NCBI GenBank assembly: GCA_038887515.1
Contig: JAWAKK010000001.1
Coordinates: 390,205-454,204, forward strand
DNA: 64,000 nucleotides
From: Candidatus Nezhaarchaeales archaeon
GTDB taxonomy: Archaea > Thermoproteota > Methanomethylicia > Nezhaarchaeales > WYZ-LMO8
Direction of reading: 5' to 3'
This document shows, piece by piece, positions 16,660-24,699 of the stretch (the stretch's first letter is position 1; every line of letters starts with the position of its first letter). The position numbers and the translations under genes were made by a program. Below the pieces are notes generated by a model that saw nothing but the letters and a program-made list of their open reading frames with translations, was not told the origin of the DNA and did no database searches.

Positions 16660-17721
16660 TTAATTAATATCCTTCGATTTTCTTTGTATCATGTATTGAT
16701 ACTTTACTTCTCCATCCATTATATAGTACACTAAACATTCACCATCTTCGGCTTTTAGTATCGGCTTTGTTAAGACTTCCGCTATTTTTACGAGGTCCCC
16801 AAGACTCTTCACGTCTATTGTTGTCCACGTCTCGGGAGGTAATCTCGTTGCCTCAATTATCAAGTCTTTATATTCTTCAGCCACTTTTTCGGTCTTTGCT
16901 ATTTCGCTAGACTCTTTCTTGGCCTTCCTTGAACCCTTAAAGTATAGGGCTGTCGATACGACTAATCCTGAAATCATAACTGCGGTCACAGCATAAGACG
17001 CATCTTTCTGTAGTTCGACGTCGGGGTACCCTACTTCAATAGTTTCCCTAATTTCTTTATTTTCAGTCTGGTTTAGGCCCTCCAGCGATATGTAGCTACC
17101 CTTATCGGTTGTCGATTTAAAAACTACGGTCAGCTGAGGGGTAAACTTTTCCCCTACTTCTCTCCCAGCAAGAACGGCTTCTATGTTTATGTTTGGCATC
17201 ACGTAGATACTATAGGAGGAGGAGTACATTCCCAACTCTTTGTCTATCGCATGAGCGATATTCCTTATTGCTGGACAGTTTATTTCAAGTGTAAAGTTTA
17301 GCGACCCCCTAAAATTCAATAACTCCACAAGTTCTGTCTCCTGCAGGTACTTTACCCATCTACCTGGCGATTCTATTTTTGCAGCCACACTCTCCATTGT
17401 TACGTTAAGCTTCTCTGGACTTGGGTTTGAAGCGAATACGTACGTAAATGTTACGTTAATCCTGTTCGTTAGAGATGTATACAAGATCCCTTCGTCGGGT
17501 CTCAATACGGTCTTATTATAAATGACGTTCGGCTTCAACTCTGCTACGCAATCGTAAAATGCTTTATGCATATATGAAGCTAAGGTTACCGTTCGCCTCT
17601 CAAACGTTGGCCTCTGTTGTACATAGTAAAGGTTTACGAGTGAGAAAACAGTTAGCGCAATGAAAGAAATGACCAATATTTTCTTAATTAACTCCTTGTC
17701 TTTCTTCATGCCTTTCATCAC
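16660..17721 (-). CDS. Hypothetical membrane protein (N-terminal TM, large extracytoplasmic domain, second TM near C-terminus)
   Basis: Long ORF with no recognisable motif. Confidence 0.4.
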   Translation of the reverse strand: MMKGMKKDKELIKKILVISFIALTVFSLVNLYYVQQRPTFERRTVTLASYMHKAFYDCVAELKPNVIYNKTVLRPDEGILYTSLTNRINVTFTYVFASNPSPEKLNVTMESVAAKIESPGRWVKYLQETELVELLNFRGSLNFTLEINCPAIRNIAHAIDKELGMYSSSYSIYVMPNINIEAVLAGREVGEKFTPQLTVVFKSTTDKGSYISLEGLNQTENKEIRETIEVGYPDVELQKDASYAVTAVMISGLVVSTALYFKGSRKAKKESSEIAKTEKVAEEYKDLIIEATRLPPETWTTIDVKSLGDLVKIAEVLTKPILKAEDGECLVYYIMDGEVKYQYMIQRKSKDIN

Positions 17722-18010: not shown

Positions 18011-19786
18011 ATGAGGCCCCCAAGCGTTAGGCTTGTGGGCGCTTTATTGATCGCATTACCTCTAATCATAGCTATTTCTTCTATGTGCATGATGGCTTCT
18101 CAGCCCACCGTCCAATTATTGCTAAGGTTTAGGCCGGGCGTTCCCGAGGACTTTAAGAAGGAGTTCCTAGAGTCTCACGGTCTACAGACGGTAGACTACA
18201 TAAAGCAAATAGATGTTTTCGTTGTTTCAGCTCCAGTACAAAGACTTCCATCAATTAAATCGGCATTGGCTGAGAGCCCTATAATAGACTTTGTTGAAGT
18301 AGACTCGATTATAGCCTACTCGCAGGTGCCCAACGATCCATATTATCCAGTCCAATGGTATTTGGCTAAAATTAATTGTCCTAGCGCTTGGGATATTTCG
18401 ACTGGAAGAAGCAACATTATAATAGCAGTGATCGACAGCGGGGTTGACCCCACACACCCTGATTTAGCCGGTAAACTCATTCAAGGATGGAACTTCTACG
18501 ATAACAATGACGATACCTCCGACGCCTTTGGACACGGTACAAGGGTTGCAGGTATAATAGCTGCAGTAACTAATAACAATGTAGGCATAGCCGGCGTGAC
18601 CTGGAACTGTCTGATACTACCTATTAAGGTCACAAACCCAAGCGGTTACACTACCACCTCGCTATTAAGCAAGGGTCTAGTTTACGCCGCCGATAGAGGT
18701 GCCAAGGTCGCAGTGATAAGTTATCAAATATTTGGTGGCTCCTCTATTTCGAGTGCGGCTAAGTACTTTGTGGACAAGGGAGGAGTAGTTGTAGCAGCAG
18801 CAGGCAACACCGGGAAGTACGAGAGCTATAACGATAATCCATACATAATCTCCGTCAGCGCTACGACTAGTAGCGATACGTTAGCAAGTTACTCGTCCTA
18901 TGGACCGTACGTGGACCTTTCAGCTCCAGGTTCAGGCATATACACTACGACTAGAGGTGGCGGTTACGGTGCAGTTTCAGGAACATCGTTCTCGGCTCCC
19001 ATTGTTGCTGGGGTTGCTGCATTGATGCTCTCAATTAATCCCTCTCTAACACCATCGCAAATCGAGCAAGTACTAGAGTCCACCGCCGTCGACTTAGGTG
19101 CGCCCGGCTACGACGTCTATTATGGTTGGGGAAGAATCGACGCTTATGCTGCCCTCAAAGCGGCTTTAGAGATGACGAGCAGAAGTACCAGCCCTCCAAC
19201 AATAATAGACACTACCCCACCAAGTGTTAGGATAGTCTATCCAGCTAGTGGAGAGGTTGTTTCAGGCTCGGTGACAGTCAAGGTTGAAGCGAGCGACAAC
19301 ATCGGAGTAGCTAAGGTAGAGCTATACAAGAATGGCAATTTACTCGCTGTAGATTATGATGCGCCCTACGAGTTCTACTGGGATAGTGCGGCAGATCCAA
19401 ACGGAGTGTACCTCTTAGTAGCTAGAGCCTACGACTCTTACGGTAACGTTGGTGAGTCGAACGCAATCGCGGTCAACGTCGTTAACAGTCTTGTAAGCAA
19501 CCCTTCCGACACTAATCCTCCAACAGTTAAAATAGTTAAGCCCTTGAACAGACAGGTGGTGTCAAAAGCTGTAGATATAGTTGTTTCAGCATCGGACGAT
19601 TCAGGGATAGGGAGGATCGAGATTTACGTGAATGGCAACTTAATAGCTACAATTAATGCTGAACCGTACACCTATAATTGGAATACAAGGTCTGTCAAAA
19701 ATGGTTGGCATACTATAACTGCTAAAGTCTACGATATCTACGACAATTACGCCGAGACTTCGATAAGCGTTTACGTGTACAATTAA
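18011..19786 (+). CDS. Secreted subtilisin-like serine protease (S8) with N-terminal propeptide and two C-terminal ~90-aa Ig-like repeats
   Basis: Signal peptide is present. Catalytic motifs are 'VIDSGVDPTHPDL', 'HGTRVAGIIAA' and 'GTSFSAPIVAGVAALM'. The C-terminal repeats are 'PPSVRIVYPASGEVVSGSVTVKV...' and 'PPTVKIVKPLNRQVVSKAVDIVV...'. Confidence 0.85.
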   Translation: MRPPSVRLVGALLIALPLIIAISSMCMMASQPTVQLLLRFRPGVPEDFKKEFLESHGLQTVDYIKQIDVFVVSAPVQRLPSIKSALAESPIIDFVEVDSIIAYSQVPNDPYYPVQWYLAKINCPSAWDISTGRSNIIIAVIDSGVDPTHPDLAGKLIQGWNFYDNNDDTSDAFGHGTRVAGIIAAVTNNNVGIAGVTWNCLILPIKVTNPSGYTTTSLLSKGLVYAADRGAKVAVISYQIFGGSSISSAAKYFVDKGGVVVAAAGNTGKYESYNDNPYIISVSATTSSDTLASYSSYGPYVDLSAPGSGIYTTTRGGGYGAVSGTSFSAPIVAGVAALMLSINPSLTPSQIEQVLESTAVDLGAPGYDVYYGWGRIDAYAALKAALEMTSRSTSPPTIIDTTPPSVRIVYPASGEVVSGSVTVKVEASDNIGVAKVELYKNGNLLAVDYDAPYEFYWDSAADPNGVYLLVARAYDSYGNVGESNAIAVNVVNSLVSNPSDTNPPTVKIVKPLNRQVVSKAVDIVVSASDDSGIGRIEIYVNGNLIATINAEPYTYNWNTRSVKNGWHTITAKVYDIYDNYAETSISVYVYN

Positions 19787-20423: not shown

Positions 20424-21752
20424 TCACCTCCTAACGATTTTTCTAGAGCCATTCACGTGCTTGTACGCGTATATTATGGATGCGTTAATAACAGCAGTTA
20501 ATAGTACGTATGCGATCAATGGGTTTTCAGTCAGATATACTGCAACGGTGCCAACCATGTTCTTTAAGAATATGCTGGCCCAGCCTATCTTCGGCACTGC
20601 GAAGACAAGCTTCCATAATTTTTGGCTAGGTATTACAACTATTGGTTCGTCGGGTACGTTGTTAGCATCACCCTTAGTCACTATTACTATTACGCCTCCA
20701 GACCTGCTTACTTCCACGACCCTATGTGCTATTGGGGAATCGATCCCGCTTCTCAAGTATTGTATTACATCGCCCACGTGAACCTTTTCTGCCGATGTTT
20801 GTACGGTTACGATTATGTCGCCTACATCAAGCATTGGCCTCATACTTCCACTTACGACTACGCTAGCTTGATACCCCAGTAGCCCACTCGTACCCCAGAC
20901 CATTGCTACCATAATCAAAGCCGCAACAAGACCTACCAGCTCTACGGACCTTGAAGCCTTACGCCCCCTCAATTTTATTTGCTTGATGTCCTTCTTGTTC
21001 ATGATTCCTACAGCGATTAACTTCATGGGCGAGAGAGCTTCATTTATCATTATCACTCCAATAGCAGGTGTAAGCGTAGTTATCAACGATTCTACCCCCC
21101 ACGGTGGTTTTGGTAGTATAGGTGCTAACCAATTGTATGCTTCTATGGTCCATACGTAGGTAATCGATGCTAGTGGCCCGCCTATTAGAGCTAGGTAAGT
21201 TGACAATAGACTCTGTGCGCCGGCCGGTAGTACTTTCGAAGCTAAAAACTTTACTGAATCAGCTAAGCTATTCTGGGCAATAAAGCTGAAAGCTGAAAGT
21301 TTAAGGAACATAAAAAATACTGTTACCAGGATTAGTCCAGTATACTTTCTACTTCTGGGTACAGACTTGACTACGTATGCTCTTGCAGTCTCCTGAGCTA
21401 AGATCGGAGCTGTAAAGTATACTATGTTTGTAATCATTCCTATTAGCGTGAACGAGTAGGGACTTCTCCCGAACTCCGTAAACAATGCTACAAGGTTTAA
21501 GCTTACGATTTGCAGTAAAGCCGTTAAAAACGCTATTATAATTACGAATCTATGGGTCTCCAACTTAAACCGTCTTAGACCTCCAATAAGATAAAGCGAG
21601 ATTAAAAACGATAACGTCCACAATAGTGATGGAATCACGTAAGCCAATAATCCAGTAAAATTAAAGGAGTTCAAAACGACATATATACCGATAATTAAGG
21701 TTAGCGTTGAGACCTGCCCTTTGTATTGGGCAAACGTGTCTTTCAAGCGCAT
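20424..21752 (-). CDS. Fusion protein: N-terminal ~270-aa polytopic membrane domain (about 7 TM, unknown function) fused to a type I signal peptidase (S26B, SipW/archaeal type) catalytic domain
   Basis: SPase boxes are 'VVSGSMRPMLDVGDII' (catalytic Ser), 'IAHRVV' (His) and 'TKGDANNVPDEP' (box D). A TM anchor precedes the boxes and a C-terminal TM follows them. Confidence 0.6.
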   Translation of the reverse strand: MRLKDTFAQYKGQVSTLTLIIGIYVVLNSFNFTGLLAYVIPSLLWTLSFLISLYLIGGLRRFKLETHRFVIIIAFLTALLQIVSLNLVALFTEFGRSPYSFTLIGMITNIVYFTAPILAQETARAYVVKSVPRSRKYTGLILVTVFFMFLKLSAFSFIAQNSLADSVKFLASKVLPAGAQSLLSTYLALIGGPLASITYVWTIEAYNWLAPILPKPPWGVESLITTLTPAIGVIMINEALSPMKLIAVGIMNKKDIKQIKLRGRKASRSVELVGLVAALIMVAMVWGTSGLLGYQASVVVSGSMRPMLDVGDIIVTVQTSAEKVHVGDVIQYLRSGIDSPIAHRVVEVSRSGGVIVIVTKGDANNVPDEPIVVIPSQKLWKLVFAVPKIGWASIFLKNMVGTVAVYLTENPLIAYVLLTAVINASIIYAYKHVNGSRKIVRR

Positions 21753-21839
21753 CCATGGCGACCTCCAACATTATCGTTAGCATAAAAAAAGAGGGGTTTA
21801 TTCGGACTCTAACTTAACGTAAGGCTTAGTTAGCTGTCT

Positions 21840-22883
21840 CTACGGTGTGTACGTGTACTTTACTTCAACTACCGCTAAATCGTGGTAAGTGTATGCGCCC
21901 CATCCGTCGGTTGCCTGGAAGCGTACCTTTAAGTCGTTAATTTCAGCAACTGTATCTACACCGAGCGCCTTTAAGTCTATAACCTCGGTACGATCTTGTC
22001 CAGGCGCAGGTAGGGGCGACAAGTTAATCGTACCCATCAACGTCGGCCCAACGTACACTCTTATCCTTGCATTATCTACGTGTGATGGTCTGTTCCACTC
22101 GAAGTACAATACAACACTGTCTATCGATGCTCCAGCAGGTAGGGTTACCTTTTCAAACCATATATCTAGGTACTCAAACTCACTATAGCACTCACTCCAC
22201 GTACTCTTAGTGCGATACCTATCATCATCACTTTGTTTAAGCCTGTTTAGATCTTGGCTCTTTAGCTGGTACCCAAAGTCTGTAGTGTCACAGCCTTTAT
22301 TCGGATTCAAACGCACTGTCTCCGTTATCGCTTGAGCTGGCGGTACATACTCATTCCACTGTATCAATTCCATCTCTAGAGCAAACGGGTAGGATGCATC
22401 TTGGTCGGCACACTGCTCAACATGCACCTTAATTACGACGGTTATTTCATCTCCTTGATGTAATTGTCTCCCTACAGGGGCATCGTGCGTAATCTGTAAC
22501 CAGACAGGTCCATCATTTGCTCCATATCCGCTCGACGGTGTCCAACCAATAGTGGTTATAACGGTTTCATTAACTATTGCTGGGACCGTTCCAGTATATC
22601 TATACACGGCAGTTATTGTTGCGTTGTAGCATGGATACGTATTGTCTACGACTACAATAAGTGTATCTGTCCCCAAGCCGTCGAATATAACTCCTCCAAC
22701 ATCCTTATCGTAACCAGGATCTACACCTTCATCGTTAGATACCGCAGATACCCACATTCCTTCAACAGTACCAGTTTCAATAGTACCACTTACCAAGACG
22801 TTCGTGCTCCATAACGTGTACACTAAACCTATCAATAACATGACAGCTACGAGGGCTGAAAGTACATACGCAAGTTTTTTCAC
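21840..22883 (-). CDS. TasA/camelysin-like secreted fibre subunit with ~165-aa C-terminal extension (347 aa)
   Basis: Signal plus 'YTLWSTNVLVSGTIETGTV', which is SipW-cognate-like. The core ends in 'ELIQWNEY', compared with TasA '...EATQWNG'. Confidence 0.5.
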   Translation of the reverse strand: MKKLAYVLSALVAVMLLIGLVYTLWSTNVLVSGTIETGTVEGMWVSAVSNDEGVDPGYDKDVGGVIFDGLGTDTLIVVVDNTYPCYNATITAVYRYTGTVPAIVNETVITTIGWTPSSGYGANDGPVWLQITHDAPVGRQLHQGDEITVVIKVHVEQCADQDASYPFALEMELIQWNEYVPPAQAITETVRLNPNKGCDTTDFGYQLKSQDLNRLKQSDDDRYRTKSTWSECYSEFEYLDIWFEKVTLPAGASIDSVVLYFEWNRPSHVDNARIRVYVGPTLMGTINLSPLPAPGQDRTEVIDLKALGVDTVAEINDLKVRFQATDGWGAYTYHDLAVVEVKYTYTP

Positions 22884-22909: not shown

Positions 22910-23419
22910 CTACTCTGGTGCTTGGAATTCGTTCCACTGTACGAGCATTATATCAATCGTGAACGTGTATGTCGCGCCCTGTAGAGCATCATTTGTTAAG
23001 TGGACAGTTAACAGACAGTTGACCTCTTGCCCTGGCTCTATTTGGTCTCCCACAGCTATCCCGCTAACCACGACCCATACAGACGCGTTACCGTTAATAG
23101 CTATGCTTTGAACTTTGACAGGAATTGTCCCAGTATTCTTTACCTTAAACTCTTGGAAGTAGTCTATGCTCGGATAGGCGTTTGTAATCGTAACCACCAA
23201 CGTATTTCCATCAACAAGAGCAGATATTTCGCTAACGTCTTTTCCAGGAACATCATCATCTCCATCGTAGCTGGCGCCTGCTATTATTTCTGCAGAGACC
23301 GTTCCAGTATTTATAGTACCGCTTACGTAGAGGTTCGTGGACCACAACGCGTAGCTTACTCCTAAGGCCAGCATAACTACGAGTAGTGATGCAACAATAC
23401 CGACAATCTTGGTCTTCAC
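22910..23419 (-). CDS. TasA/camelysin-like secreted fibre subunit (169 aa)
   Basis: Signal plus 'YALWSTNLYVSGTINTGTV'. The C-terminus is 'IMLVQWNEFQAPE'. Confidence 0.55.
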   Translation of the reverse strand: MKTKIVGIVASLLVVMLALGVSYALWSTNLYVSGTINTGTVSAEIIAGASYDGDDDVPGKDVSEISALVDGNTLVVTITNAYPSIDYFQEFKVKNTGTIPVKVQSIAINGNASVWVVVSGIAVGDQIEPGQEVNCLLTVHLTNDALQGATYTFTIDIMLVQWNEFQAPE

Positions 23420-23736: not shown

Positions 23737-23973
23737 TTACTCTTCTACTAGCAGTTTAAGAAAAAGTCTTCCCTTATCGGTTGTTCGATAAATTTTTGGG
23801 CCGCTCGGTACTTCAACGATTTCTAGCAACTCTTTGCCGACGAGGTACTGGAGGTACGCTTGAAAGCGTTTAAAGTTTAAATTAGATTTATAGATGATAT
23901 GGGTTATTTTCTCGCCCTTAAGGCATAACCTAAGTATCTCCATAATTATATTAACTTGGTTTCTACGCATCAC
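23737..23973 (-). CDS. Small winged-helix DNA-binding protein (COG3432-like)
   Basis: 78 aa: 'IIMEILRLCLKGEKITHIIYKSNLNFKRFQAYLQYLVGKELLE'. It has the same pattern as the ORF at 24376..24699. Confidence 0.5.
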   Translation of the reverse strand: MMRRNQVNIIMEILRLCLKGEKITHIIYKSNLNFKRFQAYLQYLVGKELLEIVEVPSGPKIYRTTDKGRLFLKLLVEE

Positions 23974-24164: not shown

Positions 24165-24410
24165 ATGTGTAGGCATTTTAAAAGAGGCGGCTCGATTGAG
24201 AGGATGAAGAAAAACATTAGGCGTTTTCTTAGAGCACTGGAAGACGGGGAGTTTCACAACCTCGAGGACCTATCTAGGAAATTGAATATGCCGCTTGAAT
24301 TATTGGTAGCCTTCTCAAACTTCTTGAAGAAATGGGACTTCGCGGATTTCGATGAGGAGGGTCGAAGGGTAAGACTTAAGCCTGACTTTCTTGAACTCCC
24401 CCGAGACTAA
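24165..24410 (+). CDS. Hypothetical small protein (81 aa)
   Basis: ORF only. It is basic and lies between two wHTH genes. Confidence 0.3.
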   Translation: MCRHFKRGGSIERMKKNIRRFLRALEDGEFHNLEDLSRKLNMPLELLVAFSNFLKKWDFADFDEEGRRVRLKPDFLELPRD

Positions 24411-24699
24411 GGTGTCTCTCGAGCTTCTTAAGAGCTTGGAAAAGTTTTTCTTCAGCTTCTTTGAGTTTCATAAATTCTTCAACGAAGTCCAGACCATTCT
24501 TGGTAATCGCTATCTTTGAAGAACTACCATTTAAGGAAACGAGCTTCCTAGAAAGAAGGAAGGATAAGTACTTATTAGTCCTATTTAAGTTCAAGTTGAC
24601 CTTGCGCATAATCATGGTCTTACTTTGTTTTCCTTCCTTAAGTAGAAGGAGGATGTCTGATAGGATGTCCAAGCCACTCCTTCTCTTCCTTTTAATCAT
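24376..24699 (-). CDS. Small winged-helix DNA-binding protein (COG3432-like), paralog of 23737..23973
   Basis: 'ILSDILLLLKEGKQSKTMIMRKVNLNLNRTNKYLSFLLSRKLV'. Confidence 0.5.
   Translation of the reverse strand: MIKRKRRSGLDILSDILLLLKEGKQSKTMIMRKVNLNLNRTNKYLSFLLSRKLVSLNGSSSKIAITKNGLDFVEEFMKLKEAEEKLFQALKKLERHLSLGGVQESQA

Follow-up and report, generated by a model that had tools for sequence, protein, structure and literature searches.

An archaeal signal peptidase I fused to an eight-helix domain with a predicted Rce1-like fold in an AbpX-type fibre locus

Bacteria and archaea alike build biofilm matrices from fibres of the TasA superfamily, which include TasA, AbpA, AbpX, tafi and the cannulae. 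In Bacillus subtilis, the peptidase encoded inside the fibre operon (tapA-sipW-tasA) and dedicated to its subunits is SipW, a Ser/His enzyme of the endoplasmic reticulum (ER) type, of about 190 amino acids (aa) and two transmembrane (TM) segments. Here we describe a 442-aa signal peptidase I (SPase I) encoded in a 64-kb window (the whole stretch of DNA that was analysed) from a Candidatus Nezhaarchaeales metagenome-assembled genome. Like SipW, it is an ER-type Ser/His peptidase within a TasA-superfamily fibre operon; unlike SipW, it carries eight extra helices.

Related arrangements have been described in archaea. TafD, from the tat-fimbriae of Haloarcula hispanica, is a dedicated signal peptidase needed for subunit processing (PMC11821415). 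It shares with the window's enzyme a location in a TasA-like fibre locus that also contains a DUF5305 protein (TafG); in contrast, it has four TM segments, with an N-terminal peptidase domain, a C-terminal Ig-like ectodomain and no eight-helix domain. More recently, a January 2026 preprint noted a ten-TM SPase I at abpX loci and proposed DUF5305 as an SPase accessory subunit (bioRxiv 10.64898/2026.01.04.697558). The protein of the window resembles that enzyme in its approximately ten TM segments, its TIGR02228 domain and the proximity of AbpX-like major and minor subunits and of DUF5305. Nevertheless, the preprint only counts the helices, proposing neither a fold nor a function for the extra ones and leaving CAAX, Rce1 and CPBP unmentioned, and the Nezhaarchaeales copy is not discussed there. 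The architecture is thus already known and recently noted. What is added here, besides a new member, is that the eight extra helices appear to adopt a disabled Rce1/CPBP fold, the parallel with the SpbR-SpsB pair described below, and a module of enzyme, substrates and DUF5305 that both prokaryotic domains conserve.

Two further systems bear on the possible role of such helices. In Staphylococcus aureus, the degenerate CAAX-like protein SpbR binds SpsB, a type I signal peptidase, through a TM helix and its ectodomain and controls cleavage; its motif 1 reads HELYMR, keeping the second Glu and the Arg, and the CAAX-like proteins SpdC and LnsB, with degenerate motifs as well, are non-catalytic and act by binding partner enzymes (PMC12260438). 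In the eukaryotic signal peptidase complex (SPC), extra TM helices around SEC11 frame the signal-peptide site and shape signal-peptide selection.

Signal peptidase and membrane domain in one gene

A previous reading of the window, made from the sequence only, had described a 442-aa open reading frame (ORF) in which three SPase boxes were confined to the C-terminal part. The ORF runs through its 442 codons with no interruption, a ribosome-binding site (GGAGGT) stands 7-8 nucleotides (nt) 5' of its ATG, and the source's own protein record annotates the product as signal peptidase I. The three boxes are indeed present in the translation, as VVSGSMRPMLDVGD (Ser303), PIAHRVVEV (His343) and TKGDANNVPDEP (Asp362/Asp368), and their confinement is borne out by the archaeal signal peptidase I model TIGR02228, which scores 80.8 bits over aa 278-407, above its curated cutoff of 51.85. 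Across 64 aligned homologues S303, H343, R344 and D362 are invariant and D368 is kept in 63; the HR box carries the catalytic His, not Lys. Furthermore, in a Foldseek search of the PDB, the catalytic domain was structurally closest to SEC11 of the human SPC (7p2q_A, E 3e-4, TMt 0.67). Since all the catalytic features of the ER type are present, it can safely be inferred that the C-terminal part is an active Ser/His signal peptidase I of the archaeal/ER type (S26B) and that it processes subunits. The window contains no second signal peptidase besides the fused one.

The SipW-type label given at first survives in part: the domain is SipW-like and passes the archaeal SPase I model, but it scores 67.9 bits against the 190 of the SipW equivalog NF046067, which rules it out as a SipW orthologue. 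As to its topology, a K/R-rich loop (253-268) and an anchor helix (264-289), predicted to run N-in/C-out, precede a beta-domain (294-386) placed outside the membrane. A C-terminal helical anchor follows in the AlphaFold2 model (aa 390-441), so that, with eight N-terminal helices, the protein would have about ten TM segments in all.

Peptidase and eight-helix membrane domain belong to a genuine single gene. Among 5.8 billion proteins searched, 126 homologues of the 442-aa protein were recovered, about 105 of which span 74-100% of the query with lengths of 370-450 aa, some of them being full-length at 55% identity; they come from Ignisphaera, Hadesarchaea, Dehalococcoidia, Acidimicrobiia and Chloroflexota, and the related sequences used throughout are all metagenome-derived. 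A profile of the N-terminal domain (268 residues alone) retrieved 1300 clusters (50% identity) at E<=1e-3 and 855 at E<=1e-10. In 125 of the 146 best clusters, by hidden Markov model (HMM) count, a peptidase domain lies downstream of the N-terminal domain; 20 of the 146 have no detectable peptidase, most of these running out in frameshift junk or at a contig end. In contigs representing one genome per species, at least two dozen species have the full-length form, both archaeal (Bathyarchaeia, Hadesarchaea, Nitrososphaerota, Thermoplasmatota, Culexmicrobium, Thermoproteota) and bacterial (Dehalococcoidia, Chloroflexia, Clostridia, Syntrophomonadaceae). The presence of full-length relatives in so many assemblies, together with the cluster counts, excludes the frameshift or missed stop codon that had been suspected of joining two genes. 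Nor is the fusion the oddity it had been taken for: in many archaea and some bacteria, the peptidase of AbpX-type loci has this form as a standard.

Fold and motifs of the N-terminal domain

AlphaFold2 modelling, based on the 64-sequence alignment, gave a pLDDT of 89.4 and a pTM of 0.76 for the full-length protein, and 93.8 and 0.90, respectively, for aa 1-268 alone. The N-terminal domain of the model has eight TM helices (3-29, 36-56, 68-91, 103-129, 133-151, 163-191, 193-209 and 218-239), instead of the approximately seven counted earlier from hydrophobicity. Residues 94-96 and 212-214 form short paired strands which, by the positive-inside rule, lie on the outer face, on the same side of the membrane as the peptidase domain.

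The earlier remark that this region holds no recognisable motif stands at the sequence level, given that aa 1-270 match nothing in Pfam, NCBIfam or the PDB sequences and that the PF02517 HMM recognises none of 23 members of the N-domain family. It does not stand at the level of the fold. In the PDB, Foldseek matched the domain with probability 1.00 to only two structures, Methanococcus Rce1 (4cad) and SpdC of S. aureus (6u0o), which are the two solved proteins of the CPBP/CAAX-protease fold, with TM-scores of 0.51-0.57 over about 255 columns, and all its other membrane-protein matches remained at probability <=0.16 and TM-score <=0.27. Other attempts to connect the domain with CPBP proteins were negative: an invented CPBP consensus gave only spurious glutamate racemase matches among PDB sequences, a regular-expression search of the window and related loci found no CPBP genes, and a real CPBP protein, found by tblastn on plasmids, had no sequence match among PDB chains.

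CPBP family members are defined by three motifs, EExxxR on TM4, FxxxH on TM5 and HxxxN/D on TM7 (PMC12260438, PMC11980579). In the aligned homologues, TM4 keeps E121 in 61 of 64 and R124 in all 64, at the site of motif 1; the first Glu of EExxxR is not conserved. FxxxH is absent from the 64 sequences, where conservation stays below 70% in every column of aa 128-170 and there is no conserved His, and HxxxN/D is absent as well, Y199 being the sole invariant polar residue on that helix. Indeed, no His or Cys is conserved anywhere in aa 1-268 of these homologues. The further conserved residues are Q81, N109 and Y199, plus two outer-face motifs, G95-x-S97-P98-Y99 and W208-x-x-P211-x-L213-P214. An exosortase or archaeosortase was also considered and rejected, on account of the lack of conserved Cys/His in aa 1-268 and of any match to the NCBIfam exosortase or archaeosortase models.

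On the modelled structure, then, the N-terminal domain is of a CPBP/Rce1-like fold with a degenerate active site, and not a member of PF02517. It has in common with Rce1/CPBP proteins (Abi, PF02517) and SpdC the eight-TM fold and a conserved Glu/Arg pair on TM4, and it differs from them by the lost histidine motifs, the E-x-x-R in place of EExxxR and the additional outer-face strand motifs. CPBP homology is plausible, and, because the catalytic histidines and Asn are lost and only E-x-x-R is left, the domain is probably a pseudo-protease. Its family, a large one that matched nothing in Pfam or NCBIfam here, could receive a domain definition of its own.

The closest functional parallel is SpbR-SpsB, in which a degenerate CAAX-like polytopic protein also partners a type I signal peptidase and controls what is cut; in motif 1, both SpbR and the N-terminal domain have kept the Arg and the second Glu. 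The differences are nonetheless clear. SpbR and SpsB are two proteins, and the enzyme is a bacterial peptidase of the Ser/Lys P-type, whereas the window has one polypeptide with a peptidase of the Ser/His ER type; moreover, SpbR is CAAX-like by HMM and an inhibitor, whereas the N-terminal domain has no detectable sequence similarity to CPBP proteins.

Substrates, proposed role and alternatives

The sequence-only reading had set the fusion in a fibre cluster, and this is upheld by the genes around it; the part in subunit secretion or anchoring that it proposed for the membrane domain may hold as well. The peptidase is encoded by the third in a row of four co-directional genes with gaps of 26, 87 and 9 nt between them, the last gap lying between its stop codon and the start of a 189-aa gene. 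The 169-aa product of the first gene matches Pyrodictium abyssi AbpX (PDB 9sj2) by phmmer at E 6.2e-5, the alignment beginning with W26 on residue 2 of the mature chain; a 347-aa paralogue, with the signal and donor-strand motif in common, matches the 169-aa protein by BLASTP at E 1e-28.

In most of 31 scanned loci, one to three neighbouring ORFs possess an h-region followed by (V/F)(G/A)Y(A/S)-x-W(S/T)(D/E)x(L/I)x(L/I)xGT(V/I)xTG. The Y-A↓x-W site within it (the arrow marks the putative scissile bond) shows small residues at -1 and -3 and conserved aromatics at -2 and +2. The location of the motif after the h-region, together with the start of the AbpX chain, suggests Y-A↓x-W as the predicted cleavage site. 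The portion (V/F)(G/A)Y(A/S)-x-W(S/T)(D/E) is near-identical between archaeal and bacterial loci (L001-L033), which suggests that the module has spread horizontally as a whole and that the aromatics at -2 and +2 are recognised.

Several domain rearrangements involve the same parts. In-frame fusions of the peptidase with a subunit, 617-733 aa long, are found in several archaeal lineages (P0130, P0132, P0137, P0140, P0142, P0152; in the loci, at L007:7001-9130, L012:2255-4117 and L013:1200-3110). The fused subunit, equivalent to the product of the window's 189-aa gene, keeps its own signal-peptide-like TM segment and an AYSHWS motif. In three other proteins (P0123, P0124, P0138) the eight-helix domain is followed by a basic stretch, a TM segment and an AY-x-W donor-strand subunit bearing dockerin-like or Ig-like repeats, with no peptidase domain. 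In P0249 the order is reversed, with the peptidase at aa 1-130 and the eight-helix domain at 353-590, which argues for a functional rather than an accidental link between the domains. Altogether, the peptidase-subunit fusions, the peptidase-less fusions and P0249 are consistent with a physical relation between the membrane part of the enzyme and the signal peptide. Stand-alone N-domain homologues beside TasA-like genes, which the first reading had thought worth seeking, were searched for and none was found: the short copies were mostly truncated or frameshifted, and the search also yielded a few alternative fusions and 3-4 short candidates (P0159, P0169, P0188, P0199).

The reading that we favour, with moderate confidence, is that of a peptidase dedicated to processing at the AbpX locus, whose N-terminal domain would be a non-catalytic pseudo-protease of the Rce1 fold, acting as a scaffold or as a dock for the signal peptide. 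The enzyme would cut the signal peptide off each of the three paralogous subunits encoded beside it, probably at Y-A↓x-W-S, thereby exposing the N-terminal donor strand of each subunit. Meanwhile, the N-terminal domain would provide the single-anchor peptidase with a permanently attached membrane scaffold on which the membrane-spanning signal peptide of its cognate subunits could dock. By topology, E121 and R124 lie in the inner-leaflet half of TM4, and the active site of the peptidase is predicted on the outer face. The basic n-region of the signal peptide may thus be held near the conserved Glu, at E121/R124, at the inner leaflet, and the cleavage site would come to lie beneath the peptidase. 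Such docking would confer specificity for, or control over, the processing of fibre subunits, probably with the participation of DUF5305. The fused enzyme, with a membrane domain of its own, is a candidate control point for subunit processing, premature polymerisation and cell attachment. As a Rosetta-stone link, moreover, the fusion lends support to a recent idea, according to which type I signal peptidases generally have degenerate CAAX-protease-like proteins as partners.

Some observations weigh against this reading and must be set beside it. The Foldseek E-values for Rce1 and SpdC are modest (0.016-0.03). Profile comparison by hhalign, between an alignment of up to 165 N-domain members and one of 19 CPBP members, gave P = 0.037-0.057 and a probability of about 1%, which is not significant; the only local alignment, not significant either, placed R124 onto the Arg of motif 1 and TM5 onto the FxxxH helix. 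The spacing of E-x-x-R is one residue shorter than that of EExxxR. Furthermore, the strongly conserved outer-face motifs are not accounted for by simple docking at the inner leaflet, and the TM anchor of the peptidase and its linker have a pLDDT of about 70, so that the model does not fix the relative placement of the two domains.

A bolder version, which we put forward tentatively and hold to be rather doubtful, would make of the N-terminal domain a signal-peptide receptor derived from an intramembrane protease, and of the whole protein a single-chain prokaryotic counterpart of the eukaryotic SPC. Type I signal peptidases would have had CPBP-like pseudo-proteases as partners from ancient times and across domains of life, with SpbR-SpsB as the unfused version. 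The resemblance to the SPC (SEC11 with SPC12, SPC22-23 and SPC25) lies in the SEC11-like catalytic domain and in the assistance of extra TM helices; in the eukaryotic complex, however, these come from separate, unrelated subunits and not from a CPBP-like domain. In its strongest form, if true, the receptor domain would also hold the newly exposed donor strand, coupling cleavage to chaperone-free assembly.

The conserved outer-face motifs lead to the alternative that survives best, unlikely as we find it, in which the N-terminal domain would serve the assembly or anchoring of the fibre, as a stand-in for a chaperone or usher or as an anchor for the basal subunit, rather than helping cleavage. 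A miniature beta-sheet on the outer face would take the fresh donor strand by strand addition and pass it on to the growing fibre. Indeed, the two invariant motifs form the short paired strands (E94-96, E212-214) on the side of the peptidase, published work emphasises that TasA-superfamily fibres have no known chaperone or usher, and P0123, P0124 and P0138 link the N-terminal domain directly to a subunit with a signal-peptide-like TM segment and AY-x-W, with no peptidase in between. However, the subunit is untethered once it has been cleaved, AbpX polymerises in vitro unaided (bioRxiv 10.64898/2026.01.04.697558), and these three proteins are metagenome gene calls that may represent deletion derivatives using a peptidase in trans.

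If the domain had instead remained an active intramembrane hydrolase, working through E121, it could be, for example, a signal-peptide peptidase clearing the cleaved peptides of abundant subunits. Intramembrane glutamic proteases have this fold, and the near-invariant Glu and Arg in the membrane, along with Q81, N109 and Y199, would fit such an activity. Nevertheless, the absence of FxxxH and HxxxN/D from 64 of 64 homologues, the unconserved first Glu of EExxxR and the non-catalytic nature of the similarly degenerate SpbR, SpdC and LnsB make it improbable.

We attach a comparably low probability to a sensory or regulatory gate, i.e., a domain that would act on the peptidase in response to a membrane or envelope signal and would not recruit substrates. 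SpbR does inhibit SpsB, and in one protein (P0251), which lacks a peptidase, the eight-helix domain is joined to GAF/PAS, histidine-kinase and receiver modules; but this architecture represents a single cluster out of 146, and a covalent 1:1 fusion to a dedicated enzyme would be odd for an inhibitor. Finally, an assembly, frameshift or gene-calling error merging two genes, for which the metagenomic source was the only supporting point found, has a practically negligible probability in view of an unbroken ORF with its own ribosome-binding site and of the same full-length architecture in many independent assemblies of both domains of life.

Organisation of the locus

The positions of the gene, of its parts and of its neighbours are collected in Table 1.

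Table 1. Features of the fused signal peptidase gene and of the surrounding fibre locus; positions refer to the window.
Feature	Residues	Position	Strand	Basis
Whole ORF of 442 aa, CPBP-like eight-TM domain plus archaeal/ER-type signal peptidase I		20424..21752	minus	
Eight-TM N-terminal domain, predicted Rce1/SpdC (CPBP)-like fold	1-252	20997..21752	minus	AlphaFold2 and Foldseek
E121-T-A-R124 on TM4, E-x-x-R remnant at the site of CPBP motif 1	121-124	21381..21392	minus	Conservation in 64 sequences
Lys/Arg-rich linker, predicted cytoplasmic, joining the two domains	253-268	20949..20996	minus	AlphaFold2 model, translation
TM anchor and extracytoplasmic catalytic beta-domain (Ser303, His343, Asp362, Asp368)	269-389	20586..20948	minus	TIGR02228, SEC11 fold match
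C-terminal helical membrane anchor with basic tail, predicted cytoplasmic	390-442 and stop	20424..20585	minus	AlphaFold2 model, translation
AbpX-like subunit of 169 aa, probable major subunit; signal peptide and ...SYA↓LWSTNLYVSGTINTG donor-strand motif		22910..23419	minus	phmmer against 9sj2
Paralogue of 347 aa, AbpX-like N-terminal half and extra C-terminal domain		21840..22883	minus	BLASTP to the 169-aa protein
Divergent AbpX-like paralogue of 189 aa		19845..20414	minus	BLASTP, E 2e-6
DUF5305 membrane protein		16660..17721	minus	PF17231, E 2.2e-21
HTH_45 winged-helix regulators (two)		23737..23973 and 24376-24699	both minus	PF14947, E 9e-19 and 3e-17

A layout comprising genes for small subunits, for a subunit of about 350 aa, for the fused peptidase and for DUF5305 recurs in another Nezhaarchaeales contig and in Bathyarchaeia, Dehalococcoidia and Chloroflexota. 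DUF5305 is the most constant neighbour: a homologue is encoded in 23 of 29 related loci, mostly directly 3' of the peptidase gene and on the same strand. The window has two genes between them, one for the 189-aa subunit and one for an S8 protease. The fused enzyme is conserved from Bathyarchaeia to Dehalococcoidia and its substrates share Y-A↓x-W-S, and together with DUF5305 enzyme and substrates constitute a module conserved across both prokaryotic domains.

In the 347-aa paralogue, the C-terminal half (aa ~185-347) has no Pfam, NCBIfam or PDB sequence match, and is a candidate tip or adhesin domain. A comparable extra domain follows the donor-strand module in P0140.

The S8 protease is a secreted subtilase with two Big_7 Ig domains, encoded convergently (18011-19786, plus strand) between the fibre operon and the DUF5305 gene. 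An S8 gene occupies the same place in the Nezhaarchaeales relative (L003/L004) and in a Dehalococcoidia locus (L001); in the overall count, S8 genes were recorded in 2 of 29 loci.

Between the genes for the 347-aa subunit and the peptidase, the 87-nt gap (21753-21839) contains a CCCCTCTTTTTTTATG tract. It could be an oligo-T archaeal terminator or attenuator behind the structural genes; alternatively, it could provide the peptidase gene with a TATA-like element. Lastly, the HTH_45 pair sits 5' of the operon; it is kept as a pair in the same Nezhaarchaeales relative (L003/L004), and one copy is present in L007.

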